Shown one piece after another: positions 1 through 43,292 of a stretch of DNA of 64,000 nucleotides. The stretch is from Methanocellales archaeon (GTDB lineage Archaea > Halobacteriota > JAWCLZ01), in the NCBI GenBank assembly GCA_038850275.1, contig JAWCLZ010000003.1, positions 28,194-92,193 on the forward strand, given 5' to 3'. The position numbers and the translations under genes were made by a program. The notes beneath the pieces were generated by a model. That model was not told the origin of the DNA, made no database searches, and saw nothing but the letters and a program-made list of their open reading frames with translations. Each line of letters starts with the position of its first letter. Positions within the stretch are counted from its first letter, which is position 1.

Positions 1-263
1 GGAATGGTATACCAATAGAACTAGCTATAATTAATGCAAGCATGATCTGCACTATCAAGAATTCCAATGGCTCATAAATCACCATCTTCACTCCCTCTGG
101 AATGAGATATGCCCAGATTGCTGCGATGATTGAATTTGTAAATGGAAAAGCTAAAAATGCAATTACAATGAATACAACTACCACTCTCAGCATTCGATTT
201 CGAAGCTCAATTATATGTTCCAGCAGTGGCATTTTCTTATCAGATGGCAGATCTGGACTCATC
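1..263 (-). CDS. tatC: Twin-arginine translocase subunit TatC, N-terminal part; gene runs off the window start
   Basis: Reverse-strand translation from ATG at 263-261 gives MSPDLPSDKKMPLLEHIIELRNRMLRVVVVFIVIAFLAFPF..., the conserved TatC N-terminus. The frame is open to position 1. It is absent from the ORF track because it is truncated. Confidence 0.7.
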
Positions 264-325
264 GCTAGCATTTATGCAGGCGAAAAGAAATAAGTTTATT
301 GTTTTTCAAGAATTGTTGCAATAAA

Positions 326-3082: not shown

Positions 3083-3155
3083 GGGCTCGTGGTCTAGAGG
3101 TTATGACGTCGCCTTGACGAGGCGGAGTTCCCCGGTTCGAATCCGGGCGAGCCCA
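3083..3155 (+). tRNA. tRNA-Val (anticodon GAC)
   Basis: Hand-folded cloverleaf. Acceptor stem GGGCTCG pairs with CGAGCCC. The anticodon arm TCGCC-TTGACGA-GGCGG carries GAC at positions 34-36. T arm is CCCGG-TTCGAAT-CCGGG, discriminator A. No CCA is encoded and a T-run follows. Confidence 0.85.
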
Positions 3156-3174: not shown

Positions 3175-3564
3175 ATGAAAATTTATATAAAGATTTATAT
3201 AGATGGAGGGGTTAAGGGGCATCAATTCAAAAATAAAAGAACTGGTTTTATCGCTTTAGTTTTAAACAGTGAAGAGATAGTTGAAGAAGTTGGAGCAGTG
3301 ACCAATAATCAAGCTGAATATCTCGCTTTAATAAAAGCACTTGAAATAGCTATTCAGAGAAAAATTCCAAGAGTGGAAGTGCTATCTGATAGCGAGTTAT
3401 TGATAAAGCAGATGAAGAACCTATATAAAGTGAGGAGTGAGAATTTGATCCCGCTTCATAAAAAAGCTAGGGAATTAATTTTAAAACTTGATTCATTTAA
3501 AATGACGTGGATACCAAGGGAGCAAAATTTAGCTGGCAGAGTGCTAAGTAGAAAAATATCGTAA
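3175..3564 (+). CDS. rnhA: Ribonuclease HI (type 1 RNase H)
   Basis: IYIDGG...NNQAEYLALIKALE is the RNase H fold signature. ATG at 3175 is preferred over the TTG at 3163 used by the ORF track. Confidence 0.7.
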   Translation: MKIYIKIYIDGGVKGHQFKNKRTGFIALVLNSEEIVEEVGAVTNNQAEYLALIKALEIAIQRKIPRVEVLSDSELLIKQMKNLYKVRSENLIPLHKKARELILKLDSFKMTWIPREQNLAGRVLSRKIS

Positions 3565-3581
3565 AAAAGGAGGTGAAAAAT

Positions 3582-3734
3582 TTGGAGAGAAATGTAACAG
3601 AGATTAGGATTCCTTGGATAGAGGCAATTAAATTCTGGCTAGCAGGCGTGATAGCGATGATAATCGTCTGGGTAATAGTATTGCTTTTCTTCATATCAAT
3701 GTTCATACCAATTATCAGTAGAGCAAGATGGTAA
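3582..3734 (+). CDS. Small single-pass membrane protein, about 50 aa, TTG start
   Basis: A strong SD (AAGGAGGTGA at 3568-3577) lies 4 nt before TTG at 3582. Translation is ERNVTEIRIPWIEAIKFWLAGVIAMIIVWVIVLLFFISMFIPIISRARW. It is below the ORF-track size cutoff. Confidence 0.25.
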   Translation: MERNVTEIRIPWIEAIKFWLAGVIAMIIVWVIVLLFFISMFIPIISRARW

Positions 3735-3812
3735 AAATAGGCAAGAATAAGTTAAAAAAAGGAATTATATTTAATCATAAATATAGAAATTAAATAGCAT
3801 TTTGCATTTAAA

Positions 3813-4199
3813 TTAAAATGATAAGTTGATCACCTCATCAGCACTGCTTATAACCACTTCCCTCTCTCCTTTGTATTCCTGCACTAATCCATATGCTCGA
3901 ATTCTATCCCCAATTTTAATTCTCTTAGCAAGCTCTTTTGCACCAGCACTCTTGGGTATATAGAGCTTGATATTCGTGGAGTTTGAATTCAACTCTATTA
4001 TTAGATTCTCCCCTGTTTTAGTTGGCTGCTTTGCAATCACAACCCCCGTAGCAGATACTCGCTGGCCTACTCTAGAGCTATTTGAATACTCTGGGGCTTC
4101 GCCTTTAGCAGCTGGAAGTAAATAGAAGAGCGAGAGCGAGGCCAATGAAATGATTAATAGCAATACTATTATTCTCTCCTCTTTTTGAAGCATGTTCAA
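3813..4199 (-). CDS. Membrane-anchored OB-fold protein
   Basis: An N-terminal TM helix is followed by an OB-fold-like domain, GQRVSATGVVIA...IKIGDRIRAYGLV. Confidence 0.45.
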   Translation of the reverse strand: MNMLQKEERIIVLLLIISLASLSLFYLLPAAKGEAPEYSNSSRVGQRVSATGVVIAKQPTKTGENLIIELNSNSTNIKLYIPKSAGAKELAKRIKIGDRIRAYGLVQEYKGEREVVISSADEVINLSF

Positions 4200-13126: not shown

Positions 13127-14023
13127 TTAAATAAGTTCTCTTAAATAGATCTTGTGCCTCCCGAGTTTTCCCCCGTAGTTACCAGCTGATATCTTTACAA
13201 CTCCAGGGGTGTTAATCCCAGCATTTATTGCTTGCTTCATTGCTTGCTTCACTGCTTCCATTGTTATGCCATTTATCACTATCTCAGGAATGGATTTCAC
13301 GCCATTTGGAACTCTAGATTCAGAGCCTAGTTTTTGCTTTAAAGTGGGGCAGTATGGATGATTTGTGGTTGGACCTATCTCGGGATATTTTGTCTCAGGC
13401 TTTGAGCCAGCACTGCAGATGTCAAAAGAGGTAATTGCGCCTTCTATTTTTTCAATTGCCTTAACTGCTTTCTCCCCAACCTTCAATGCCGCATTGATAC
13501 TAGTGCAGAAATACCAGATGTTGCCTCCCATGATTCCCTTTGCATATCCTAAGTAGCGCTCGATTTTAAAGTCATGGCCCATCATAATAGGCACATTTAT
13601 AACCTTCCTTCCATAGTACTCCTCTTCCCATTCATATCCATCGCCGCAGTGGCCAACTTTATCCATTATATCGATTTTTTTCTCAGAATCAGTGGCATTG
13701 AAAACTGCTGTGGTGGGAACCACTAGTATCCCTTGTCTAATCCTCTTGCCTAATTCAACCTCCAAGGTCTTAACTGCTCCCTCCCCGCCTAATATCCAGA
13801 TCTGGATCAATGCGCCAACTCTTCCATCTGGGGTTTGCTTTTTAGTCAGCCATCCTTCAATTCCACCTTCACTCTGGCCAAGTACAGTCAGAGGCAATGC
13901 AGTTGAAGAGAAAGCTGCACGTTGGAGTAATTTTTTATTCCTAGCGGTTATAAGCAAGCGAGAATATAGGCCATCGAAGGCCTCGCAATAGGTATCCTCT
14001 ATAATAGCCGCCATATCAAACAC
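13127..14023 (-). CDS. ftr: Formylmethanofuran:tetrahydromethanopterin N-formyltransferase
   Basis: 298 aa. Collinear with Ftr from N-terminus (IEDTYCEAFDG...LITA) to C-terminus (ISAGNYGGKLGRHKIYLRELI). Confidence 0.9.
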   Translation of the reverse strand: MFDMAAIIEDTYCEAFDGLYSRLLITARNKKLLQRAAFSSTALPLTVLGQSEGGIEGWLTKKQTPDGRVGALIQIWILGGEGAVKTLEVELGKRIRQGILVVPTTAVFNATDSEKKIDIMDKVGHCGDGYEWEEEYYGRKVINVPIMMGHDFKIERYLGYAKGIMGGNIWYFCTSINAALKVGEKAVKAIEKIEGAITSFDICSAGSKPETKYPEIGPTTNHPYCPTLKQKLGSESRVPNGVKSIPEIVINGITMEAVKQAMKQAINAGINTPGVVKISAGNYGGKLGRHKIYLRELI

Positions 14024-15001
14024 CTAATATTCCCTAGTTATCATATAGTTTGCCAGCTGCGCTAGGAGTGTTCTTGCGTGAGTTTGAGGCAGTACCTCGA
14101 GTTTTTTCTTTCCCTTTTCAACCATGAGCTTAGCTTTTCTCATGGCATATGTAATTGAGCCAGCTTGTTCAAGTATTTCAACTGCCCTTCCTATCTCGCC
14201 CTCGCTGGCTAGTTTGGCAAGTAAATTGAGATCTATACCTTTGGATTGCGCGTGTATCGCAACTAGTGTTTTCTTCTTCTCAATCAAATCACTTCCCCGT
14301 GGTTTTCCAAGTATCTCTTGCGGGGCGATTAGATCTAGGACATCATCTCGTATTTGAAAACCAATTCCAGTTACCAAGCCTATTTCATAAAGCGCATTTA
14401 CCTGCATTTCACTTCCCCCTCCCAGGAGCCCACCTATTGAGGTTGATGCAGCGAATAGCATGCCTGTTTTCTTGCGCACCATCTCTAAGTATTCCTTAAT
14501 GCTCACTGTTTCGCGCTTTTCAAAATCAAGGTCAAGCCATTGTCCTTCGCAGATCTCAGTGAGTGCTCTTGAGAGAATATCTATGCTGGCAACGATTCTC
14601 TCTGGTTGAGCCTTGGATTTAGCTAGGATCTCAAAGGCCTTGCAACATAGGGTATCGCCAGCGAGTATTGCACTTGAGGTATCCCATTTCACGTGCACCG
14701 CTGGTATGCCACGCCTGAGCTCGTCTTCATCCATTATATCATCGTGTATCAAGGTGAAGTTGTGCACTAGTTCAACTGCAACTGCTGCTGGTATTACATT
14801 TTCCGAGTTGCCCAGAACTGCCTCTGCAGCGAGCATGAGCATCACTGGTCTCAATCTCTTTCCCCCTGCATCAAGCAAGTGCCTTGAGGCTCTATAGAGC
14901 TCCTTAGGATGGGAAATTGGGAGATATTTTTTAATTGCTTCGTTAACTAATGCTGTTCTCTTTTTCAATTCAGCTTTTAAATCAAGTTCTTCAACTTTCA
15001 A
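14024..15001 (-). CDS. idsA: Polyprenyl (geranylgeranyl) diphosphate synthase
   Basis: FARM motif LIHDDIMDEDELRRG and SARM motif FQIRDDVLD. Confidence 0.85.
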   Translation of the reverse strand: MKVEELDLKAELKKRTALVNEAIKKYLPISHPKELYRASRHLLDAGGKRLRPVMLMLAAEAVLGNSENVIPAAVAVELVHNFTLIHDDIMDEDELRRGIPAVHVKWDTSSAILAGDTLCCKAFEILAKSKAQPERIVASIDILSRALTEICEGQWLDLDFEKRETVSIKEYLEMVRKKTGMLFAASTSIGGLLGGGSEMQVNALYEIGLVTGIGFQIRDDVLDLIAPQEILGKPRGSDLIEKKKTLVAIHAQSKGIDLNLLAKLASEGEIGRAVEILEQAGSITYAMRKAKLMVEKGKKKLEVLPQTHARTLLAQLANYMITREY

Positions 15002-15009
15002 GGTTTCAC

Positions 15010-16347
15010 CTACTCAAGAATTAATTCCTGGCCATTTCTAAGCACATGCAGGGTATCCCCAAGGATATAACCTGCTTCTTCAGCCATTTCTGCATATGAG
15101 CTATTCATATATATATCGCCGTGTGAGGGAATCACATTCTCAGGGCTAACCATTCGCAAGAGTTCCCAGTGGTCCTCTCTATATGCATGTCCTGAAACAT
15201 GCACATTGGTATATACCCTCGCTCTCTTCATCTTTAGCTTTGTTTCAATTGCATATCTATTAGCTTCATTCACTGGATTTGGTATTACATTAGCGGAGAA
15301 GATCACTCTATCATCAGGCTCTATTTTAAAAGGCGAGTCTCCATTTGCAATCCTATTGAGAACCGAGCCAGGCTCGCCTTGATGTCCAGTTGTGATTAAA
15401 AGATAATTAGCCTTTCCATCTTCCATTACTTGCTTTAGCATGCGATCTATATCTTTCTTATCCCCGCAGATCTTAACTTCTTGGTGCTCGAGATAGCCCA
15501 TTTTAATAGCTGTGCCGTAGTATCTCTCCATAGATCTACCCAGTAGTACTGGCATTCTCCCAATCTCCAAAGCTGCATCAACTATGGATTTGATCCTAGC
15601 TATATGGGAGGAAAAAGTGGTTACTATTATCCCTTTTTTTAAATCCTCCACCCCAAGTAGTGCATCAAATATTAATTCCCTTGCCACGCGCTCGGAGGGG
15701 GTTTTGCCTGATTTGCCTGCGTATATGGTTTCAGTTATCATAGCTATAACTCCCTGCTTTGAAAGCTGTCTGAGGCGAGAAGTATCAGGTGGTTCGCCTA
15801 GAACTGGCAAGCGATCTAATTTGAAGTCATTTGCATATAGCAGTATTCCCCCAGGGGTATGCAGTGCCACGAATACGCAGTCAATTATACTATGCTGTAC
15901 TCTAATGAACTCAGCTTGAATATCTGGGCTAATTTGATAGAATTCACCTGCTTTAAGTGGAATAACTTTATTTTCCACTCCAAATTTCTTCTCAGCAGCG
16001 ATCTCATGCTCTATAAGTGCTGAGGTATAAGGAGTGGAGATAATTGGAGCTGCGTAGCGATGAGCTAGCTTAGGCAACGCTCCAATGTGATCTAGGTGTC
16101 CATGAGTGCATATGATTGCCTTGATCTTTCCAGCTATGTCTTTTATAACGCTATCATCTGGAATGGCACCTATTTTTATTAAATCCATGGAGTGGATTTT
16201 TTCGATCTCAACATCTTCGTGGATCAAGACTCTATCAAGCCTTAATCCCATGTCAAAGATCACTGCTTCATCGCCAATTCTAACTGCAGTCATATTGCGG
16301 CCTACTTCATCGTAGCCTCCTATTGCTATTATTCCAATTTCAGTCAA
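15010..16347 (-). CDS. Archaeal RNase J-like beta-CASP ribonuclease
   Basis: MBL HxHxDH motif (THGHLDHIG), beta-CASP region, about 445 aa. Confidence 0.8.
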   Translation of the reverse strand: MTEIGIIAIGGYDEVGRNMTAVRIGDEAVIFDMGLRLDRVLIHEDVEIEKIHSMDLIKIGAIPDDSVIKDIAGKIKAIICTHGHLDHIGALPKLAHRYAAPIISTPYTSALIEHEIAAEKKFGVENKVIPLKAGEFYQISPDIQAEFIRVQHSIIDCVFVALHTPGGILLYANDFKLDRLPVLGEPPDTSRLRQLSKQGVIAMITETIYAGKSGKTPSERVARELIFDALLGVEDLKKGIIVTTFSSHIARIKSIVDAALEIGRMPVLLGRSMERYYGTAIKMGYLEHQEVKICGDKKDIDRMLKQVMEDGKANYLLITTGHQGEPGSVLNRIANGDSPFKIEPDDRVIFSANVIPNPVNEANRYAIETKLKMKRARVYTNVHVSGHAYREDHWELLRMVSPENVIPSHGDIYMNSSYAEMAEEAGYILGDTLHVLRNGQELILE

Positions 16348-16353
16348 TTTGAT

Positions 16354-17439
16354 CTACCTCGTTGAATAGTGCTTTATATTAAATCCCCTTTGCTCTAGAA
16401 ATTCCCTAGTTTTGCCCGTTATCACTAGTTGAGCTTTCTTCAAATCTTCTATGCAAGCGCAGCCACTCAAGAACATTGCAACTTTAAGTTCTTCCATGAT
16501 TAACTTAAGTTTCTCAATCACAGCTACCTCGCTCTTGAGCGCTGGCTTTAGCAATGGCAAGGCAATTCCACAGAGAGAGGCACCTAAGGCAATTGCTTTT
16601 GCAGCATCCAAGCCTGATCTTATTCCACCTGTGGCAATCACGTGCATGTCCTCACTAACCTTTGACTCCACGATGCTAACCGCAGTTGGAATGCCCCAGT
16701 TCCAGAATAATTTACCAAGGCTTTCTCTAACTGCATTTTTCTCAGCAACTGCTCTATAATATTCCACTCCCGCAAAGCTAGTACCGCCTAAGCCTCCAAC
16801 GTCAATCGCGGCTACCCCTGCTTTTTTCAATTCCCAAGCAACTTTATGTGAGATCCCAGCACCGGTTTCTTTAACGATTATGGGAACTTTGCTGGCTTTG
16901 CATATCTCCTTAATCTCCGCGAGCACGCCTTTAGCATTAACATCCCCCTCAAGCTGAATTGCCTCCTGCAAGAAGTTGAGGTGAATTGCCATCGCATCTG
17001 CATCTATCATTTCAATTGCCCTCTCTATGCCCTCAATTCCATATTTCCTTAGCTGTGCAGCGCCAAGATTGCCATATATAAAAGCACTGGGGGCATAATC
17101 CCTAACCACTCTATATGTATCTTCTAAACTGCTGTTCTCGAGAGCAGCCCTCTGACTTCCAACTCCTATGCCTATTCCCAGTTCTTCAGCTGCTTTAGCA
17201 AGTGCTATGTTTACTTTTTTTGTATCCTTGTGCCCCCCAGTCATTGATGCTATTAGCAATGGTGCCTTAAATTCATGTTCCAAGAAGTTTATGGAATATT
17301 CAATGACATCTTTATCCACCTCTGGGAGTGCATTGTGAATTAGGTATATATCCTCAAATCCACTCCACTTTGACTCAACCTCTTTCTCAGCGCAGATATA
17401 TAGATGTTGAATTTTGCGATTTGATGTCTCGCGAGACAT
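16354..17439 (-). CDS. fni: Isopentenyl-diphosphate delta-isomerase, type 2 (FMN-dependent)
   Basis: IDI-2 TIM-barrel signatures. ATG at 17439 (MSRETSNRKIQHL...) is the likely start. The ORF track extends to an upstream GTG at 17457 that overlaps the tandem repeat. Confidence 0.85.
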   Translation of the reverse strand: MSRETSNRKIQHLYICAEKEVESKWSGFEDIYLIHNALPEVDKDVIEYSINFLEHEFKAPLLIASMTGGHKDTKKVNIALAKAAEELGIGIGVGSQRAALENSSLEDTYRVVRDYAPSAFIYGNLGAAQLRKYGIEGIERAIEMIDADAMAIHLNFLQEAIQLEGDVNAKGVLAEIKEICKASKVPIIVKETGAGISHKVAWELKKAGVAAIDVGGLGGTSFAGVEYYRAVAEKNAVRESLGKLFWNWGIPTAVSIVESKVSEDMHVIATGGIRSGLDAAKAIALGASLCGIALPLLKPALKSEVAVIEKLKLIMEELKVAMFLSGCACIEDLKKAQLVITGKTREFLEQRGFNIKHYSTR

Positions 17440-17447
17440 ATTCTTTG

Positions 17448-17566
17448 CTTTATTCACCTTTTATTAACGTACCTCTTGCTTTATTCACCTTTTATTAACG
17501 TACCTCTTGCTTTATTCACCTTTTATTAACGTACCTCTTGCTTTATTCACCTTTTATTAACGTACC
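17448..17566. repeat. Perfect tandem repeat, 31-bp unit x about 3.8
   Basis: CTTTATTCACCTTTTATTAACGTACCTCTTG is repeated head-to-tail at 17448, 17479, 17510 and 17541 (last copy partial). It fills the ipk-idi2 spacer. On the minus strand each unit carries TAATAA and AAAGGTGA. Confidence 0.9.
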
Positions 17567-18319
17567 AAAATTCTCCTCACCGCTTAAAAAGGCTTCTACA
17601 TATCCCTTTTTAGCTGCATTGAATATTCTAGACTTAATCCCTGCTTTAGCAAGCTCTATAAGCTCTTCAACCTTCCCAAGCATTCCCCCTGTTACATCGA
17701 TGTCTTTTGAATTCCATAGATTTAGTGCTTTAAAAGACTGAGGCGTTATCACTGGAATTAAAACGCCATTTTTATCAAGCACCCCTTCGACATCTGTGCC
17801 TAAGCCGATTTGTTTAGCTTTGAATTGCTTCGCTAGGTATACTACTATTTGATCGCCGGATAAAATACCCACGCCTTTTTTAACATCCATTGCTACATCG
17901 CCGTGGAGCACTGGGAGGATATCCTTCTCAAGCATTGTTTCTATAACTTTACATTCAAATGAAACTATCCTTCCATCTTTTAAAGTTGCAGAGGAAAAAG
18001 GATGAACTGGCGCTGCTTTAACGCCCTGTTCTAACAGTGCTTTGATGAAGCAGTCATTTAAATTCCTCACAGCCTCGTGGGTTATTAATACCCCTGCGAA
18101 GTTTTCATTCCTCAAACCCTGGGTTAGCTTATAGGCCTTTGCTTGAGGGTGACCTTGTGAACCCGCGCCATGCACGAGTATTAGATTCTCAGATTTTGAA
18201 GCAATCTCGCTAGCGATTCTCTTGATCTCCTCTAGCTTAAGCCCACCTGCAGTTTTCTTTTCAGTGAGCACGCTTCCACCAATTTTTAAAATCCTCAGCT
18301 TTTTCCCTTCTTTCATCAA
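17543..18319 (-). CDS. ipk: Isopentenyl phosphate kinase
   Basis: Amino-acid-kinase fold (LKIGGSVLT, LVHGAGSQGH). Confidence 0.85.
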   Translation of the reverse strand: MMKEGKKLRILKIGGSVLTEKKTAGGLKLEEIKRIASEIASKSENLILVHGAGSQGHPQAKAYKLTQGLRNENFAGVLITHEAVRNLNDCFIKALLEQGVKAAPVHPFSSATLKDGRIVSFECKVIETMLEKDILPVLHGDVAMDVKKGVGILSGDQIVVYLAKQFKAKQIGLGTDVEGVLDKNGVLIPVITPQSFKALNLWNSKDIDVTGGMLGKVEELIELAKAGIKSRIFNAAKKGYVEAFLSGEENFGTLIKGE

Positions 18320-18333
18320 TCATTACCCTTCTT

Positions 18334-19239
18334 TCATTCAACCATTACCCCTATATCAGTTGCTCTTGTTTCAATGGCTTTGAAGCCTAAAGCGGAGATG
18401 GCTGAGATTATATCTTGCACGCGTGCTCTAGAGCAAATTGCAAACATGCATCCACCGCCCCCTGCACCCGTAAGCTTCGCTCCATATGCCCCTGCTTTTC
18501 TCGCAACATTGCACATCGTTGAGAGCTGCTCTGTGCTAACTCCAAGAGCTTCAAGCAAGCTTTGATTCATATTCATAAGCCTCCCAACAGCTTGATAGTC
18601 AGCTTTCTCTAGATATTGCAAGCCAGTTTTTGAAATATTGCCAATTGTTTTAATAATCCCTTGAGTTATCTCTGGATATTCTAGGTTCAAACTTCTAACC
18701 CTAGCTATCATTTCCTTGGTTGAAGATGGCTTGCAGGAATCCCCTATTACCATGCCCACATCGATAGCGCTGAATCGCTTTCGCTCTGGAATTACCACGA
18801 TTCCTCCAAATGTTGATACATAGGTATCTGTGGGACTTGCTGCACCTTGTACTTCATATTCAACTTCATGTCCAAGTCTAGCTATCTCATCCAAGTTAAG
18901 CCCTAATTTAAATTCTGCATTAAGCGCAGCTAGGGTTGCAACTGTAACAGCAGCCGAGGATCCAAGATGTGCCTCCGCTGGTATTTGAGATTTTATTTCA
19001 ATTTTAACTTTATTTGATATCTTCTTGCATTCTTTGATCTTCTCAATTGCTTTAATTACATATGGGTAGCTCTCAGCTTTATAGTTGGAATGAATCTCAG
19101 CCTCAAAAGCCCCTGAGTTATGCACTTCTACTTTAACCTTAGTTCTCAGATCTATTGCGCATGCAACTGCATTCTCTCCATATACAACCGCGTGCTCCCC
19201 AAAAAAATAGATCTTGCCAGGAGCTGAGCAGACCTTCAT
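18334..19239 (-). CDS. mvk: Mevalonate kinase (GHMP kinase)
   Basis: PGKIYFFGEHAVVYG N-terminus, GHMP motif LGSSAAV, and C-terminal KLTGAGGGGC. Confidence 0.8.
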   Translation of the reverse strand: MKVCSAPGKIYFFGEHAVVYGENAVACAIDLRTKVKVEVHNSGAFEAEIHSNYKAESYPYVIKAIEKIKECKKISNKVKIEIKSQIPAEAHLGSSAAVTVATLAALNAEFKLGLNLDEIARLGHEVEYEVQGAASPTDTYVSTFGGIVVIPERKRFSAIDVGMVIGDSCKPSSTKEMIARVRSLNLEYPEITQGIIKTIGNISKTGLQYLEKADYQAVGRLMNMNQSLLEALGVSTEQLSTMCNVARKAGAYGAKLTGAGGGGCMFAICSRARVQDIISAISALGFKAIETRATDIGVMVE

Positions 19240-22620: not shown

Positions 22621-23850
22621 TTATCTAAACCATTGACTTATATAGAACAAACCAGCCAGTGCTATTATCCCAAGGAAGAATAATCCAATGATCCAGAGTA
22701 TTCTGCTATATTTATCCACGAAGTGATTAACTGCAATTGTAACAGGCTCAGACTTGAAAAGTGTCTTCTGCCGTGGTTCTGAAATATTAAGATCCGCTAG
22801 AGGCTGCTCCATTATGGCTGAGCCCTGAGTTGCGAGAAGTTTAGGAGGTTCTTCTGCTACACCATTGACAATTGCCATTACTCGAACTCTATCATCAAAG
22901 CCCTTACGTATTCTCGCGCCCCAGATTACATTTGCATTTGGATCTAACTCTTTAGTGAATTCCTCTGCAATTTCATTTGCTTCCTCAAGAGTTAAATCAG
23001 GACCTCCAATTATATGCAATAAACAGCCCTTTCCACCTTTGATATCTATGTTCATAAGAGGATTCGAAAGCAAGCTTTTCACCACTTTCTGCACTTTATC
23101 CCTGCCATTTGCCTCTCCAACCAAAAGCGTGCCTACCCCGCCTAGTTCAGCAATTGCCTTGACATCCGCGTAATCAATGTTTATGAGAGATGGCTGAGTT
23201 ATGCTCTCCGAGATACCTTTTATAGTGTCCGCGATTAAATGATCCATTACGTTTAAAGCTTGCTCAATAGGCTGATTAGGCACTAGTTTTACCAAGCCAT
23301 CATTGCTAAGCACGATAACAGTATGGGCATGCTCCCTTAGCTTCTTCAAGCCCATTTCAGCTATCTTAATTCTTCCTCGCTCAACTGCAAATGGCATTGA
23401 TACCATCGCAATTACAATAGCGCCAATTTCCCTTGCAATCTGCGCCACAACAGGGCTAGCACCTGTACCAGTGCCTCCGCCTAAGCCAGCGGTTATGAAT
23501 ACAAGATCTGCTTTTCCTATTGCTTTAGCAATTGCCTCTTTCCCAAGCTCAGCGCTTTTCTCACCTATCTCAGGATTTCCACCTGCACCCAGTCCTTTGG
23601 TTAATGCGCCTATCAATACTTTTTTATCAGCTTGCACAATTTTCAAATGATTTGCATCAGTGTTTATAGCAATGGTTTCAGCACCTGCTATACCAAGGCT
23701 ATGCAAGCGATTAACTGAATTATTACCCGCGCCACCCACTCCCACAACTTTAATTTTTGGCTGGCTGAAATCATCAAAATCTGATTCAGAAGTAGATTTA
23801 TTTAACTCAGAATGAACTATAGCTTCCTGCACAATCTCATCCATCAACAT
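22621..23850 (-). CDS. ftsZ: Cell-division GTPase FtsZ with a C-terminal transmembrane helix
   Basis: GVGGAGNN, NTDA, tubulin signature GGGTGTG. The final approximately 25 aa (ILWIIGLFFLGIIALAGLFYISQWFR) are strongly hydrophobic. Confidence 0.85.
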   Translation of the reverse strand: MLMDEIVQEAIVHSELNKSTSESDFDDFSQPKIKVVGVGGAGNNSVNRLHSLGIAGAETIAINTDANHLKIVQADKKVLIGALTKGLGAGGNPEIGEKSAELGKEAIAKAIGKADLVFITAGLGGGTGTGASPVVAQIAREIGAIVIAMVSMPFAVERGRIKIAEMGLKKLREHAHTVIVLSNDGLVKLVPNQPIEQALNVMDHLIADTIKGISESITQPSLINIDYADVKAIAELGGVGTLLVGEANGRDKVQKVVKSLLSNPLMNIDIKGGKGCLLHIIGGPDLTLEEANEIAEEFTKELDPNANVIWGARIRKGFDDRVRVMAIVNGVAEEPPKLLATQGSAIMEQPLADLNISEPRQKTLFKSEPVTIAVNHFVDKYSRILWIIGLFFLGIIALAGLFYISQWFR

Positions 23851-23987
23851 CCCCTGCCAATTTTTATATTGGTTAAATAATTAAATGCTCAAGGATATAT
23901 ATTTTGCGATGAGAAATTAGAAAAATGTTAATTCTTTAAAAATTATTTTTAATCTTTTTTGCCTTGTTTAACACCTTTTATGTTCTC

Positions 23988-31834: not shown

Positions 31835-32674
31835 TTACGCTGGCTTCTCAAGCAGTGCAACTTTCTTGAGGAGCTTTCCTTCTTTATCGTGGGGCTCTCG
31901 GAACACTGAATCATTTGCCTTCTCGATCTCCCTCGCCTCATCAGCGAGCTTGGCAGCTGTCCTCATTAAATCGTGAGAAGCTGCCCCGAGGATTATATAT
32001 TTATTTGGATCCTGCTCCACGAAGCAAGTTCGCACATTTATACTTCCCACGAGTTCAGCCATACTCAAAGCTGCAAATGCCTTTGCCTTAGCATAGGGAT
32101 TCTTGAAGTTTGCTCTCTCAACACAGCGCTCTGGGTTAGCAATTATGGTTGGAAGCGTCAATGCTTGGCCTGCTTTAGCTTGTTCAATCAACTTATCAAG
32201 TTCCTCTTGAACAAGTCTAACTGCTCCACAAATTGCTAGCACTTTGATTGCATCTGCATTGAAATTTGCCATTTCAGCTGGATCTAGAAATTCTCTCCTA
32301 GCAGCAATCAAGGGATCCACTGGTAGCAATATATATCCAAATCCCTCTGCCTTAAGCGCTGCTCTGAAGTCCTTGGATTTCTGATCCCCGCCAGCAGGAC
32401 CATCTGAGATTATCAAAGTGGGCTTGCCCTTGAAAAATGCCCTCGCTGCCGTAGGCCCAGCTGCACTGCAATTAGGGCTGATTATTACATAGAAGTTGCA
32501 GTTATATGCGAGTAGTTTTTCCGCTTCTGGAGCTTCATCCTTGCCCATCTTGGCCCCTGTTCCAACTACTCTACAGGCAATATCCCCTCGATCTGCTCTT
32601 TCATCAAGCAACAGCTCAACCATCGCACTCGTGGCGATGTTCCCCATTTTCATAACTCCAATTTTCACAACCAT
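31835..32674 (-). CDS. mtd: F420-dependent methylenetetrahydromethanopterin dehydrogenase
   Basis: 279 aa, collinear with Mtd (MVVKIGVMKMGNIATSAMVELLLDERADRGDI...CFVEQDPNKYI...DEAREIEKANDSV). Confidence 0.9.
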   Translation of the reverse strand: MVVKIGVMKMGNIATSAMVELLLDERADRGDIACRVVGTGAKMGKDEAPEAEKLLAYNCNFYVIISPNCSAAGPTAARAFFKGKPTLIISDGPAGGDQKSKDFRAALKAEGFGYILLPVDPLIAARREFLDPAEMANFNADAIKVLAICGAVRLVQEELDKLIEQAKAGQALTLPTIIANPERCVERANFKNPYAKAKAFAALSMAELVGSINVRTCFVEQDPNKYIILGAASHDLMRTAAKLADEAREIEKANDSVFREPHDKEGKLLKKVALLEKPA

Positions 32675-36981: not shown

Positions 36982-37145
36982 TTTCCAATACCTCTTTATA
37001 AATGCCTTACATCTAATCCCTTATAATTTTATCCATAAAGAAAAGAAGATTAAGAAATATAAAATTGAAGAAAAAGAAATAGAAAACAGATGAAAATCCA
37101 GATAGATATAAGAGCCTGAAAAAGAAATAAAAGGAAATAAAAATT

Positions 37146-37218
37146 GGGCTTGTGGGGTAGCGGACTATCCTAGCGGGCTTCGGACCCGCTGACCTGGGTT
37201 CAAATCCCAGCAGGCCCG
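37146..37218 (+). tRNA. tRNA-Arg (anticodon TCG)
   Basis: Acceptor stem GGGCTTG pairs with CAGGCCC (one G-U). The anticodon arm GCGGG-CTTCGGA-CCCGC carries TCG. T arm is CTGGG-TTCAAAT-CCCAG, discriminator G. No CCA is encoded. Confidence 0.85.
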
Positions 37219-37412
37219 TGCTTCTTTGCTCCAACCTAGCTAAGTGCTACGCCTTTAATTAAGGCTTCTCCAAAGGCTTTTGTTATCGAGCTTCGAAAAC
37301 GAGCTTTCTCCCTCCAAGAACCTTCTCATTATAAACGATTATGCGTCTTTGTTATGTCGAGTGAGCTTCATCAATCGCTCTCTATCTTCATTACTCCTCT
37401 TTCTTTCAATCA

Positions 37413-39694: not shown

Positions 39695-40402
39695 TCAAGC
39701 TACTTTTAAATTAATTTTTGAAATGCCGCAATATAGTTTTGTTCCAGGGAAAGTAATGATGGCTATTTTTCCCTCGCCATAGCTAACATTTAACCCTAGG
39801 GTTTCATTGAAATATCTGCCCCATTCTCTATAGTAATTGCTTTTAATTATCACAGTAGTGTTATTGGTATAAATCGGAGAGGCTAATTTACTGGCTTTTG
39901 CTATTATTCTAATCACTCCTTCTCCAGCCTTTGAGTCCGAGCCAGCTAGCTCTATTACTGGTAAATATGAAACATTGCCCTTTGAAGCTCTAGGTGGCGC
40001 TAGAATTAAGGTGCTTTCCTCATATAAATATTTCACGAAGACAGCGCTGTTTTCATAGGCTATCACACGGTCAGCTAGCTCATACTCCACTGAGCCCAAG
40101 GAATATCGAGTTCCTTCGATTTCTATCCAGCTTTCGTTTACTAGAGAAATGCATCCATCTTTTATTTTTACCTCGCTCGTTCTCGATGGAGCCTGTGCGA
40201 GTGCCACTTCATCGATATTTGCCTTGAGCACTGAAAAGCTCTGCTCCATTTCACTAAGATGCGTCGACTTCTCAGCTGCATCGAGTACAGGCAAGCCATG
40301 GGTGTAAAAAAGCATTCCTGCCATGAGCACTGTGGAGAGTATTAATATATATCCAATTGCATTTGTAAGCGCGTCTTCCATCTTCAACATATTTTGCCTC
40401 AC
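39695..40402 (-). CDS. Pilin-like protein with an N-terminal TM/class-III-like signal (operon gene 5)
   Basis: N-terminus KMEDALTNAIGYILILSTVLMAGMLF, then a beta-rich domain. Start overlaps the stop of the upstream gene. Confidence 0.45.
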   Translation of the reverse strand: MRQNMLKMEDALTNAIGYILILSTVLMAGMLFYTHGLPVLDAAEKSTHLSEMEQSFSVLKANIDEVALAQAPSRTSEVKIKDGCISLVNESWIEIEGTRYSLGSVEYELADRVIAYENSAVFVKYLYEESTLILAPPRASKGNVSYLPVIELAGSDSKAGEGVIRIIAKASKLASPIYTNNTTVIIKSNYYREWGRYFNETLGLNVSYGEGKIAIITFPGTKLYCGISKINLKVA

Positions 40403-41859
40403 GAGCTGTATTTAATGAATACTTGAACGCAGTCCCAAGTTATTTCATCAAGCTTATTTTTCTTCGATATATAGACCCTCAAGTTATAAGCTGTGTTATT
40501 ACTCGGGCTTGCAGTTTCATTGAACCAGTAGGTTTTAGCTCCATTTAGCTCTATGGATTTATCTGAGATCAAGCCTGAAACTTCGAGGTGCAGGTTATCA
40601 CTGCCTCCATTCTGAGTGTGGCTGCTGATATTTATTGCTATATCGACTTCAAAGCCATGCATACCGCTGGGAAAGACTGGTGTAAATGAATAAATTTTTT
40701 CAAGAGAACCGCCTGATGGCGTGAAGCTCGCTGGTTCTAAGTCGCTGCTATTCCAAGTACCTATAATTGGTATAGTTACATTCACTACGTTGGATAGCGC
40801 TCCCTCAACTCCACTGTTGTTAACAACGGTAACTGCGTAGTAATATGTCATTCCCTGAGTTTTAACACTTGAATCTAGGTAGCTTGCGGGTGAGTCAAAC
40901 CAAGAGTTCGCTAGAAGCGTGGCTGTACCTAGATTTGAGTCATTTATGGGCTCGGTGCTTCTATAGATTTTATAGCTTGCCACTGATCCTATGGCTGGCT
41001 TTGTCCATCTAAGAAGTACGTCGGGATATGTTAAAACCACTGCATTTAAATCGCTAACATTACCAGGGGGTAGTCCAATTACTTTATATACCCTTAAATC
41101 ACTCGCAGTGTTGCCAGTTCGATCATAGGCTATGGCTTTAACTCTATATTCCCCATTTGGATATCTCTCGGTATTCCACTCCCATTGATAGGGATATTCA
41201 GCTGTGTAAACAAGGGTATCATTTAAGTAGTACTCCACTTTAACTACATATATATTATCCACTGCATTTACCCTTAGTTTCACTGTTTGTGAAATAGTTG
41301 AGCCATTTGCAGGACTAGGTGCAGTGAATGCGATTACCGGTGGCGTAGTGTCTATTGATGCATCGCATTCTCCAATAGTAATTACGCCAGTTGTGCGATT
41401 GAATCTCAAGATCTTTGTTTTTTCCGCGCTGGATATACTGCAATTTGCCACCGCTATTAATGGACTGATTGGTATTTTCACCTCTATATTGCGATTGACC
41501 TCAGGAACTAGTTTCACTAATCCTCTTTGTATTGCTATGGTGTAGAAGCTACCTCCTGCTTTGCTGGGAATTTCGACTTGAGAGGTTAATTCAATTATTT
41601 CTCCAGCTATGCTCGCGGTATTTATAACTCCATCAAAATCTTGGATTTTTGAGACTAAATCGCTGCCAATTGAACTGAGCTCGCGATATATAGCTATGTC
41701 AGTGGTGCTTATTAATATGCCTTGAAAGGATAGCGCTATGATGGAGAGTAAAACTGCAGAGATAGAGAAGGTTAATAGCAATTCAACTGTTACTGTCAAT
41801 GCATTTTCATCTTTCATATATATCCACCTTGATTTTTTCCTCGAGCTTAAGGATTCCAT
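40399..41859 (-). CDS. Large surface protein with a pilin-like N-terminus and FN3/Ig-like domains (operon gene 4)
   Basis: N-terminus KDENALTVTVELLLTFSISAVLLSII. It has many N-glycosylation sequons, and YKVIGLPPGNVSDLNAVVLTYPDVLLRWTKPAIGSVASYKIYRS is FN3-like. Confidence 0.5.
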   Translation of the reverse strand: MESLSSRKKSRWIYMKDENALTVTVELLLTFSISAVLLSIIALSFQGILISTTDIAIYRELSSIGSDLVSKIQDFDGVINTASIAGEIIELTSQVEIPSKAGGSFYTIAIQRGLVKLVPEVNRNIEVKIPISPLIAVANCSISSAEKTKILRFNRTTGVITIGECDASIDTTPPVIAFTAPSPANGSTISQTVKLRVNAVDNIYVVKVEYYLNDTLVYTAEYPYQWEWNTERYPNGEYRVKAIAYDRTGNTASDLRVYKVIGLPPGNVSDLNAVVLTYPDVLLRWTKPAIGSVASYKIYRSTEPINDSNLGTATLLANSWFDSPASYLDSSVKTQGMTYYYAVTVVNNSGVEGALSNVVNVTIPIIGTWNSSDLEPASFTPSGGSLEKIYSFTPVFPSGMHGFEVDIAINISSHTQNGGSDNLHLEVSGLISDKSIELNGAKTYWFNETASPSNNTAYNLRVYISKKNKLDEITWDCVQVFIKYSS

Positions 41860-42232
41860 CTTGGTATACTAAAGTGAGATTGAGATAGTCTAACGTTTGA
41901 TTTAGGTAATCTAAGTGGATTTCAACAGCTTCACCTCTCGCTGCATATAGCAAGGTAGTTGCGTTTACATAGGAATTGAAGTAGGAATGAAAGGTTGAAT
42001 TGAAAAAATCGCTACTGGTTTTATTTGCTTTTAAAACTGCATTTCTTGCCTCGCGAATTGTCATTTCCTGAAGGGATTTGAAGTGCTGCTTGCTTGGATA
42101 AAGTCCCGTCCCTGGAATGTTGCTTGTCAAGATTACATCGTTGAGTAGAATGGTTATTAATAGTAGGCTTAGCAACATGATGAATGCACTTAAGAGGATC
42201 ATTTGTCCCTCTCCATCTTTTTCCACATTCAT
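41807..42232 (-). CDS. Type IV pilin-like protein (operon gene 3)
   Basis: N-terminus GEGQMILLSAFIMLLSLLLITILL, with G-Q at the putative class III cleavage site. Confidence 0.45.
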   Translation of the reverse strand: MNVEKDGEGQMILLSAFIMLLSLLLITILLNDVILTSNIPGTGLYPSKQHFKSLQEMTIREARNAVLKANKTSSDFFNSTFHSYFNSYVNATTLLYAARGEAVEIHLDYLNQTLDYLNLTLVYQDGILKLEEKIKVDIYER

Positions 42233-42234
42233 GG

Positions 42235-42795
42235 CTACATCCTCCAGAGGGTGAGTTTAACTAGCACTAGGTTGTAAAAATCTGAGGTGCTATCTATATC
42301 TTTAATTGGATTGTTTTTATTGATTTTATCGCTATCGTAAATAACCACGGATTCATATACTGTAACCGCGTTATCAGAAGGCTCTCCATTCCAGATTATT
42401 GCTCCCGTTGCGAGATCCCATTTTGATGTGTTTATATATATTATTTCTAAATCATAGGCTATGCCTCGATTTGAGAGCGTGGAGATGAGGAGTTTTTCAA
42501 ATTCACTAAGATTCAATTTCCCCTGTAAGTTATTCTCTCGAGTCCCAGTCCAGTTTAATATGTTGCTTTTCAATGGCGAGCTGATATTCAAGGGATCTGG
42601 AGAGTAGTTAGATGTAGTTAATAAATCTTGACCAAGCATTGCTAAGTAAAACTCGATTTGCTGATTCGATGCAGAGGAGGTAAGGGGAGTTAGTGGGGTG
42701 GCTTTGGTTATGAATAGGAGTGCTGCTAGGATTAATGAAGCAGCTGCAAGTGCTTCTAAGGTGTAGAGTTGTCCAGATTCGTTTAATTTCACCAT
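42235..42795 (-). CDS. Type IV pilin-like protein (operon gene 2)
   Basis: N-terminus ESGQLYTLEALAAASLILAALLFI, a G-Q...E motif. Confidence 0.45.
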   Translation of the reverse strand: MVKLNESGQLYTLEALAAASLILAALLFITKATPLTPLTSSASNQQIEFYLAMLGQDLLTTSNYSPDPLNISSPLKSNILNWTGTRENNLQGKLNLSEFEKLLISTLSNRGIAYDLEIIYINTSKWDLATGAIIWNGEPSDNAVTVYESVVIYDSDKINKNNPIKDIDSTSDFYNLVLVKLTLWRM

Positions 42796-43292
42796 ATCAT
42801 CACCAATAGTATCAATCTTTCTTCCAATTCACTTGCGAGCACTACTCTCTTGGCTTGAGCAACTGTTGAGAAATCTGGTGGCGTTTTTCCAACCTTGAGC
42901 ACTGCCTGTGAATTTTCTAGGTATATGCTGTCATTTAAAAATCGAAGCTCTAGGTATAGTTCGTATTTTCTATTTGCTGTTACTAGTCCAAGTTCATTTA
43001 TTTTACTCTCATAGGAATTGCTTAGTGAACTATTCAACTCTCTAGCTTTTTCAAGTGAGATCAAGCCGGGGTTTTGAGGATTTACTGCAAGTCCTCTTGG
43101 GTCTTCAATTAAAAAGGCTGCTATTCTATTTGCTAGGAAATTCACATTCTCTGATTCAGATTGAAATGGAACGAAAAGTCCAGTTATGCTTTGAAAAAGA
43201 AATAAAAATGCCAGTGAGAATATGATTATTCCAGCTATGAAATCCAAGCTAATTTGAGCACAGGAGTCTAGTCTCTTAATCATTTCTTTCAC
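42789..43292 (-). CDS. Type IV pilin-like protein, DUF361-type signal (operon gene 1)
   Basis: N-terminus RLDSCAQISLDFIAGIIIFSLAFLFLF, matching the archaeal QxSxEF-type class III signal. Confidence 0.5.
   Translation of the reverse strand: MKEMIKRLDSCAQISLDFIAGIIIFSLAFLFLFQSITGLFVPFQSESENVNFLANRIAAFLIEDPRGLAVNPQNPGLISLEKARELNSSLSNSYESKINELGLVTANRKYELYLELRFLNDSIYLENSQAVLKVGKTPPDFSTVAQAKRVVLASELEERLILLVMIW

Follow-up and report, generated by a model that had tools for sequence, protein, structure and literature searches.

A predicted tail-anchored paralog of FtsZ2 in Methanocellales archaea

How FtsZ is attached to the membrane, and whether directly attached FtsZ deforms it, are central questions of prokaryotic cell division, which have so far been tackled through adaptors (FtsA, ZipA, SepF, and CdpC) and through engineered FtsZ with a membrane-targeting sequence. 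They are raised again by a gene in a 64,000-nucleotide stretch of a Methanocellales metagenome-assembled genome (MAG; GCA_038850275.1, contig JAWCLZ010000003.1), referred to below as the window. An earlier note on this DNA described the product of the gene, here called TM-FtsZ, as a canonical FtsZ core fused to its own C-terminal transmembrane (TM) helix and proposed that the fusion would bypass a separate membrane tether. Is this tail real, which FtsZ carries it, and what might a membrane-spanning FtsZ do? We compared TM-FtsZ with homologous proteins and loci (cited by P and L numbers, respectively); all the genomes with TM-FtsZ that were examined are MAGs.

A conserved hydrophobic tail on an FtsZ core

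The gene lies on the minus strand as an uninterrupted open reading frame (ORF) of 409 codons (22621..23850), whose longest form reaches the ATG at 23850. The true start is most likely the second ATG at 23844 (MDEIVQEA...), since the first ATG of the TM-ftsZ gene on a Logan contig, L124, runs into an in-frame TAG and all the homologs begin with M[DE]xIV, reading on as M[DE]xIVQEA. The coding sequence would then span 22621..23844 and specify 407 residues plus the stop codon; residue numbers below refer to the 409-residue ORF unless the 407-residue numbering is given. PF00091 (Tubulin) matched residues 32–189 (23284..23757; E 1.5e-41, 143 bits against a cut-off of 33), and PF12327 (FtsZ_C) matched residues 238–331 (22858..23139; E 3.6e-28, 98 bits against a cut-off of 27). 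The NCBIfam equivalog TIGR00065 (ftsZ) likewise scored 365.5 bits, above its cut-off of 295.2. The GTP-binding loops GVGGAGNN, GLGAGGNP, and GGGTGTG (the last within the PF00091 match) and the T7 loop NIDYAD, just upstream of the PF12327 match, were read directly from the sequence; in a 36-sequence MAFFT alignment of TM-type and canonical FtsZ proteins, they form invariant columns and align to Methanocaldococcus jannaschii FtsZ1 (MjFtsZ1). AlphaFold2 (AF2), run on the same alignment, modeled the core, including the GTPase domain, with a predicted local distance difference test score (pLDDT) of ~90. As judged from its sequence, TM-ftsZ is a complete FtsZ-family GTPase gene with intact polymerization motifs, and the description of its core as canonical in the earlier note holds.

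The core is followed by a disordered, fast-evolving linker of about 45 residues (residues ~336–376; 22723..22845), a length typical of division FtsZ (~45–75 residues across the homologs); AF2 left residues 331–377 (407-residue numbering) unstructured, with pLDDT <50. Hydropathy stays low after the core until residue ~380 and then rises to the only hydrophobic peak in the protein, at residues 384–404 of 409, the N-terminus being acidic and without a signal peptide or a second TM segment. Within this peak, ILWIIGLFFLGIIALAGLF (residues 384–402) has a 19-residue Kyte–Doolittle mean of 2.71 and a position-independent Hessa-scale sum of −3.97 kcal/mol, which is in the range of genuine membrane proteins in the window. 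AF2 folded residues 376–406 (407-residue numbering) into a single helix with pLDDT 80–89. Among 182 FtsZ proteins and ~170 FtsZ ORFs in the loci compared, a 19-residue mean above 1.6 in the last 120 residues was seen in the TM clade only. The predicted TM helix, ILWIIGLFFLGIIALAGLFYI (residues 384–404; 22639..22701), is followed by a five-residue stub, SQWFR (22624..22638), and the stop codon (22621–22623). A lone TM-type segment within ~30 residues of the C-terminus, as hydropathy and AF2 place it here, fits the definition of a tail-anchored protein. These results support the hydrophobic helix noted earlier and indicate that the C-terminus of TM-FtsZ is a predicted tail anchor, a hydrophobic helix whose 21 residues would suffice to cross a bilayer. 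An N-in/C-out topology, with the SQWFR stub exposed on the outside, is suggested by where the helix sits, by the charges on either side of it (DKYSR ahead and a single R/K behind), and by the need of the core for cytoplasmic GTP.

When 5.8 billion proteins were searched, the top nine matches (P0001–P0009; 70–100% identity) all carried the same terminal helix; the other 111 matches were 359–403 residues long and ended in a short terminal peptide such as ...SIIDVIK. A tenth tail-bearing sequence, the 93-residue C-terminal fragment P0121, was the only match of a word-index search with the tail alone. These ten sequences come from separate assemblies (NCBI MAGs, JGI, and Logan). An exhaustive HMMER search with the tail returned only P0121 and a chance match to a eukaryotic Ig-like repeat protein (P0178), and thus no donor family for the tail, full-length TM-FtsZ being probably hidden within a canonical FtsZ cluster of the 50% library used in the tail-only searches. 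In a collection of 185,579 species, each represented by a single genome, only four loci in three MAGs encode the tail, and all three MAGs are labeled Methanocellales. At the DNA level, a back-translated TM pattern matched TM-ftsZ alone within the window and within L001–L004. The same pattern had no match in JGI metagenome contigs or IMG/VR viral contigs, and a protein-based metagenome scan yielded only canonical FtsZ, at ≤56% identity.

Substitutions were counted on codon alignments of six loci, and ratios of nonsynonymous to synonymous change (pN/pS) are given as ranges among the window and L001–L004. The pre-TM and TM region had a pN/pS of 0.02–0.12 at a synonymous divergence of 0.45–0.9, and the GTPase core had a pN/pS of 0.05–0.14. 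The linker reached 0.3–0.8 and also contained indels between homologs. The tail is thus under purifying selection as strong as that on the GTPase core. Variable positions of the helix tended toward one face, but not significantly (resultant 0.53, p ~0.10). That the tail is false, created by a frameshift, a missed stop, or a chimeric assembly (the first two being sources that the earlier note had named), has a negligible probability, because at least 10 sequences from independent assemblies keep the same tail at 70–92% identity, its changes are mostly synonymous with scarcely any nonsynonymous ones, and the reading frame runs uninterrupted through it in all six loci.

Just ahead of the helix lies the juxtamembrane motif FVDKY (residues 377–381; 22708..22722). 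In the TM proteins, a motif of the form [FI][VI]D[KQ]xY precedes the helix by 5–7 residues; its versions are FVDKY and FMDKY, with IDQRY in the member that diverges most. Its Asp is invariant across the 36 aligned sequences and shares its column with the Asp of the canonical ...IIDVI... peptide. The Methanobrevibacter smithii FtsZ peptide that was crystallized with SepF is NEDQLDDFIDGIF, which contains FIDGI; an arginine of SepF pairs with Asp374 of this peptide. FVDKY is thus probably what remains of the canonical FtsZ C-terminal peptide (IIDVI, or FIDGI in M. smithii), and the tail would have arisen by extension past the original peptide, for example, through loss of a stop codon, and not by replacing it. 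AF2 places FVDKY at the start of the helix, whereas the SepF-bound M. smithii peptide is extended; as modeled, the relic would not have the form in which SepF is bound.

An extra paralog on the FtsZ2 branch

By name and by solved structure, TM-FtsZ would pass for an FtsZ1: sources name some of its relatives "FtsZ 1," and its best match in the PDB was MjFtsZ1 at 310 bits, with bacterial FtsZ scoring no higher than 246 bits. This identity was rejected, and TM-FtsZ was placed on the FtsZ2 side, on the basis of cdrS-linked relatives, the tree, and terminal peptides. The core is 49% identical to MjFtsZ1 and 59–62% identical to the cdrS-linked canonical group. In seven loci of the nearest canonical relatives (Methanomicrobiales and two other lineages), a CdrS-like ribbon-helix-helix (RHH) gene lies directly upstream of ftsZ; its product, MRRITIRLPEQQ...GEFP..SEAIR, is a Pfam RHH_1 protein. 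These loci match the cdrS–ftsZ2 arrangement, described as highly conserved in Euryarchaeota (PMC7439475), and the reported arrangement of "ftsZ2 with parD" (PMC8178401).

A neighbor-joining (distance) tree with 200 bootstraps, rooted on bacterial FtsZ and with MjFtsZ1 as the FtsZ1 reference, left MjFtsZ1 outside a clade with 100% bootstrap support that comprised a Methanothermococcus protein, DPANN copies, the canonical Halobacteriota group, and the TM clade. The Methanothermococcus protein is only 55% identical to MjFtsZ1 and is therefore a paralog of it. A long branch leads to the TM group (100% support), which is sister (83%) to all the canonical Halobacteriota FtsZ2 proteins (99%). The phylogeny of FtsZ paralogs that the earlier note had called for was thus obtained as a distance tree, which puts TM-FtsZ on the FtsZ2 side, on a long branch.

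Haloferax volcanii FtsZ2 was compared through its published terminal peptides, which Liao et al. quote as ...SLEDSDDQFGDPR (N-terminal) and ...NNGLDVIR (C-terminal). Similar peptides are found in the canonical relatives (...TEDDFEDFGSPS and ...SIIDIIR) and in the TM protein (...SESDFDDFSQPK). The N-terminal tail of TM-FtsZ, MDEIVQEAIVHS...SDFDDFSQPK (23758..23844), consists of a short helix and then an acidic stretch in the alignment, a layout also found in the canonical FtsZ2 relatives; AF2 placed a helix at residues 2–13 of TM-FtsZ, within a region of low pLDDT (residues 1–26). The tail is similar to the published N-terminal peptide of H. volcanii FtsZ2. Together, these comparisons indicate that TM-FtsZ, as far as sequence can assign it, belongs to the archaeal FtsZ2 branch and not to FtsZ1. 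Membership of the CetZ family was rejected as well, since TIGR00065 was passed and the PDB matches at E ≤ 1e-20 were FtsZ in 49 of 49 cases, with no CetZ among them.

Within this branch, the TM proteins stand apart. Canonical FtsZ2 proteins are 77–87% identical among themselves, and TM proteins are 58–63% identical to any of them. At 15 positions with a conservation of 90% or more among canonical FtsZ2 proteins, the TM clade is fixed for other residues (e.g., VLDNNRL to VLSNDGL), and it has one single-residue deletion relative to canonical FtsZ2. No cdrS linkage was found: the gene upstream is tatA in the window and in L001–L003, and no RHH ORF precedes TM-ftsZ in L004 or L124. The terminal GID/IID-type peptide, the SepF-binding C-terminal element, is not free, because FVDKY is internal and is followed by 28 more residues that include the helix. 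By its sequence, therefore, TM-FtsZ falls within the definition of the FtsZ family but lacks two habitual FtsZ2 features, a free C-terminal peptide and linkage to cdrS. As for the age of the duplication, one of four diagnostic columns (a small number) is shared with the co-resident FtsZ2, and the TM clade is equidistant from the canonical groups; an old duplication and a recent but accelerated one are both possible.

A canonical, soluble FtsZ2 is present beside TM-FtsZ in every genome in which this could be checked, and TM-FtsZ is hence an extra paralog; the search for further FtsZ genes suggested in the earlier note was answered for one contig and two MAGs. On L124, the TM gene (699–2003) is followed 45 nucleotides on by a canonical ftsZ of 356 codons ending in ...ESIIDVIR, and the two are probably co-transcribed. 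The MAG GCA_964631075.1 contains the TM proteins P0007 and P0008 (contigs 13 and 57) and the canonical proteins P0014 and P0017 (contigs 74 and 110). In GCA_038850285.1, the canonical P0180, from the 90% cluster of P0017, is on JAWCMA010000013, and scaffold 2 of the same assembly holds the L001 TM gene. The MAG of the window probably also holds a canonical FtsZ2, as suggested by P0181 (MEM2925394.1), another member of the P0017 cluster that is only 934 accession numbers away from MEM2924460.1 of the window and has the same organism label. The canonical copies co-resident with TM-FtsZ in MAGs (P0014, P0017, P0180, and P0181) end in ...VDSIIDIIR/K. Two other proteins, P0038 and P0034, were considered as the canonical copies of the window's subclade and were rejected because they come from other assemblies. 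No SepF, FtsZ1, or CetZ candidate was obvious in the 64-kb window on inspection by eye, no search having been aimed at these genes.

Several side observations concern FtsZ genes elsewhere. CdrS-like RHH genes immediately precede genes whose products some sources call "FtsZ 1" (L127 2705–2980, L128 2199–2453, L006 9764–9973, and other Methanomicrobiales), so paralog numbers in automated archaeal FtsZ annotation are unreliable. Micrarchaeota and other DPANN archaea (L010–L029, L079–L085, and L119) have two tandem ftsZ genes, and both copies form FtsZ2-side sister clades in the distance tree. Two tandem ftsZ-like genes, for proteins of ~440 and ~464 residues with different C-termini, were also seen in Draconibacterium/Prolixibacteraceae of the Bacteroidota (L049–L068 and L101–L117); to our knowledge, bacteria almost always carry a single ftsZ, and a tandem pair is unusual. 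On L124, a small protein with a weak match to a mechanosensitive-channel beta domain (3250–3828) is encoded just downstream of the tandem TM-ftsZ and ftsZ2 genes.

What a membrane-spanning FtsZ might do

The reading that we favor, with a probability of roughly 0.6, is that TM-FtsZ is a tail-anchored, self-tethering FtsZ that polymerizes on the membrane, possibly with soluble FtsZ2. Since the predicted helix is within ~26 residues of the C-terminus, it would leave the ribosome only at termination; this is too close to the end for co-translational recognition, and the protein would therefore be inserted post-translationally as a tail-anchored protein. Get3-like factors are reported in archaea (PMC6593721). 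The GTPase core would stay cytoplasmic in the N-in/C-out topology and would polymerize with GTP at the cytoplasmic side of the membrane, spaced from it roughly by an FtsZ linker of normal length. In the most economical role, the division ring would gain a permanent, adaptor-free attachment independent of SepF, with TM-FtsZ anchoring it as homopolymers or by co-polymerizing with soluble FtsZ2 as a built-in anchor or nucleator. Co-polymerization is plausible given the ~60% identical cores and the tandem genes in one genome, and the near-invariant helix suggests a specific contact inside the membrane.

A number of points weigh against self-tethering in division. For localization, insertion, and polymerization, the proposal draws on sequence and a structural model, and co-polymerization with FtsZ2 is conjecture from the same sources. 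A plain anchor would need no near-invariant helix sequence. The long branch, the ~60% identity, and the 15 fixed changes may mean that TM-FtsZ has left the division machinery, and TM-ftsZ is not linked to cdrS. Finally, the two TM-type and two canonical FtsZ2 genes of GCA_964631075.1 (L003, L004, L125, and L126) are all in different contexts; this assembly may be a mixed bin of two related populations or may hold true duplicates of both types.

How does such a protein compare with known systems? No FtsZ proper with a C-terminal TM anchor was found in the full-text literature searched, whose coverage of subscription journals is thin, so that absence is unproven; to this extent, a TM-fused FtsZ is indeed as unusual as the earlier note had supposed. 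TM-FtsZ shares with archaeal FtsZ2 (H. volcanii HVO_0581, tethered by SepF) its branch, the layout of core and linker, the N-terminal acidic DxF..P motif, and the Asp of the C-terminal motif, and differs from it in the helix that follows the peptide, the lack of cdrS upstream, a core that is only ~60% identical, and its presence in addition to canonical FtsZ2. The haloarchaeal tethers are SepF for FtsZ2 and CdpC for FtsZ1. These tethers, like CdpA in haloarchaea and ZipA in bacteria, are by analogy similar to TM-FtsZ in joining a membrane element to FtsZ filaments through a long flexible linker, but they are separate FtsZ-binding proteins, whereas in TM-FtsZ the predicted anchor and the filament subunit are one polypeptide.

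Within the literature searched, direct membrane binding of FtsZ is documented only via amphipathic helices: Odinarchaeota FtsZ1 binds the membrane through an N-terminal amphipathic helix (PMC12583498), and Mycoplasma FtsZ and, as cited alongside it, chloroplast FtsZ1 also bind membranes in this way. In these proteins, too, attachment is built into FtsZ without an adaptor, and by analogy they offer a precedent for direct membrane binding being functional. Their binding is, however, peripheral and reversible, whereas the TM-FtsZ segment is uniformly hydrophobic, bilayer-long, and placed at the tail, and attachment through such a predicted membrane-spanning anchor should be permanent. The only TM fusion in the superfamily found in the literature searched is Sulfolobus solfataricus SSO1376, a protein of the FtsZl1 family fused to TM helices (Makarova and Koonin 2010, PMC2875224). 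It is likewise an archaeal member of the FtsZ/tubulin superfamily with a membrane-spanning region, but it is a distant FtsZ-like protein and not FtsZ proper, its helices are N-terminal, and its gene is disrupted by a transposon.

An engineered relative is also instructive. As in TM-FtsZ, the membrane-binding element of FtsZ-mts comes after the linker, in place of or extending the C-terminal adaptor-binding peptide; the construct is artificial, bacterial, and amphipathic, whereas TM-FtsZ is natural, archaeal, and predicted to be transmembrane. In FtsZ-mts, the peptide that binds FtsA is exchanged for the MinD membrane-targeting sequence. FtsZ engineered to bear such a targeting sequence reportedly assembles into rings in liposomes (Osawa, Anderson and Erickson 2008). 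A bolder version of the self-tethering proposal, which we offer only tentatively, would make the membrane-spanning FtsZ the physical anchor of the ring: it would be co-polymerized with soluble FtsZ2, some of the filament subunits would be integral membrane proteins, and SepF would be dispensable or redundant. If so, constriction force would pass straight into the bilayer, the invariant helix and the outer stub might couple to an envelope partner, and TM-FtsZ would be the natural counterpart of the engineered FtsZ-mts minimal divisome.

The best-surviving alternative, although we consider it rather doubtful, is that TM-FtsZ is a neofunctionalized cytoskeletal protein outside division, forming membrane-attached filaments for cell shape or envelope organization after a CetZ-like divergence. 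It would account for the long branch with its 15 clade-specific substitutions at otherwise conserved core positions, the lost cdrS linkage, and a helix conserved beyond the needs of a passive anchor, and the retained canonical FtsZ2 implies that the division role is already covered. A protein that passes the TIGR00065 equivalog cut-off, finds no CetZ structure among its PDB matches at E ≤ 1e-20, keeps a linker of the length typical of division FtsZ, and in one genome is encoded in tandem and probably co-transcribed with ftsZ2 nevertheless fits this alternative poorly.

It is a good deal less probable that TM-FtsZ is a membrane-bound regulator that acts by capping or sequestration at the membrane, on soluble FtsZ2 or, by way of the FVDKY relic, on SepF, and thereby tunes or inhibits ring assembly. 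The co-existing canonical FtsZ2, the Asp-containing motif kept beside the helix in the likeness of the C-terminal peptide, and a predicted promoter of its own, apart from ftsZ2 in most genomes, are compatible with such a role; the longitudinal interface, however, retains both of its elements intact (the loops that bind GTP and the T7 loop NIDYAD), so TM-FtsZ bears no mark of a capper, and AF2 sets the motif at the helix start and not in the extended form of the SepF complex. Least probable of the functional proposals, and very unlikely in our view, is the simple bypass suggested by the earlier note, in which TM-FtsZ would be the sole FtsZ of its type and would merely replace the SepF tether: a fused anchor could in principle do away with the need for a tether of its own kind, and the liposome rings reported for engineered FtsZ speak for it, but TM-FtsZ is an extra paralog with the FVDKY relic kept, and a canonical FtsZ2 with a free C-terminal peptide co-occurs in every genome that could be checked.

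Permanent anchoring would be compatible with whatever TM-FtsZ does. As a naturally evolved FtsZ whose predicted integral anchor is kept under strong selection beside canonical FtsZ2, the protein is a natural experiment, and it also offers a simple construct for liposome reconstitution and a case of paralog specialization in the archaeal divisome; the practical limits are hosts that have yet to be cultured and a clade of very few members.

Upstream region and gene neighborhood

The upstream regions of six TM-ftsZ genes, including those of L004 and L124 in unrelated contexts, share a conserved order of elements: GCAAAATATATAT, CAATATAAAAA, GGGGAT, and ATGGA. The first, a BRE/TATA-like box on the minus strand at 23907–23895, corresponds to the TATA-like element of the earlier note and is kept upstream of all six genes. 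It is likely to be the TM-ftsZ promoter, with a spacing that fits an archaeal BRE/TATA promoter and a leader of ~25 nucleotides. The second conserved box, CAATATAAAAA (23871–23861, minus strand), was found in the alignment of the six regions and may mark the start of the 5′ untranslated region; the Shine–Dalgarno-like GGGGAT (23854–23849, minus strand), conserved just ahead of the second ATG, is a putative ribosome-binding site.

On the minus strand, the gene order is HAD hydrolase, tatC, tatA, TM-ftsZ, usp, DUF5350, DUF1614, rpoK, and rps2. The adjacency to tatA–tatC pointed out previously is therefore real, but its orientation had been misread: all these genes are on the minus strand, and ftsZ lies downstream of tatC and tatA. 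Synteny of this block was seen in L001 and L002, and tatA precedes TM-ftsZ in L003 too, but not in L004 or L124. Adjacency to tat is thus recurrent and has no evident functional link; a tail anchor would not use Tat. Housekeeping genes surround TM-ftsZ, whose GC content is 0.42 against 0.40 for the window, and nothing at the locus suggests a mobile element.

Elsewhere in the window, the N-terminal part of a second TatC-like ORF is at the edge (2–271, minus strand), which makes two tatC paralogs within 25 kb. Five successive ORFs at 39695–43292 (minus strand), each with a short charged stretch and then a hydrophobic helix, resemble an archaeal cluster of type IV pilin-like proteins with class III signal peptides. 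Two stretches, 13127–19239 and 31835–32674 (both minus strand), yielded two sets of genes on inspection by eye. One is a block of isoprenoid and mevalonate genes, including geranylgeranyl diphosphate synthase, an RNase J-like protein, type 2 isopentenyl diphosphate isomerase, isopentenyl phosphate kinase, and mevalonate kinase, which is syntenic with L001; the other comprises Ftr and Mtd, methanogen-type C1 enzymes. Both are consistent with the Methanocellales label. Genes for tRNA-Val(GAC) and tRNA-Arg(TCG) are located at 3083–3155 and 37145–37219, respectively.

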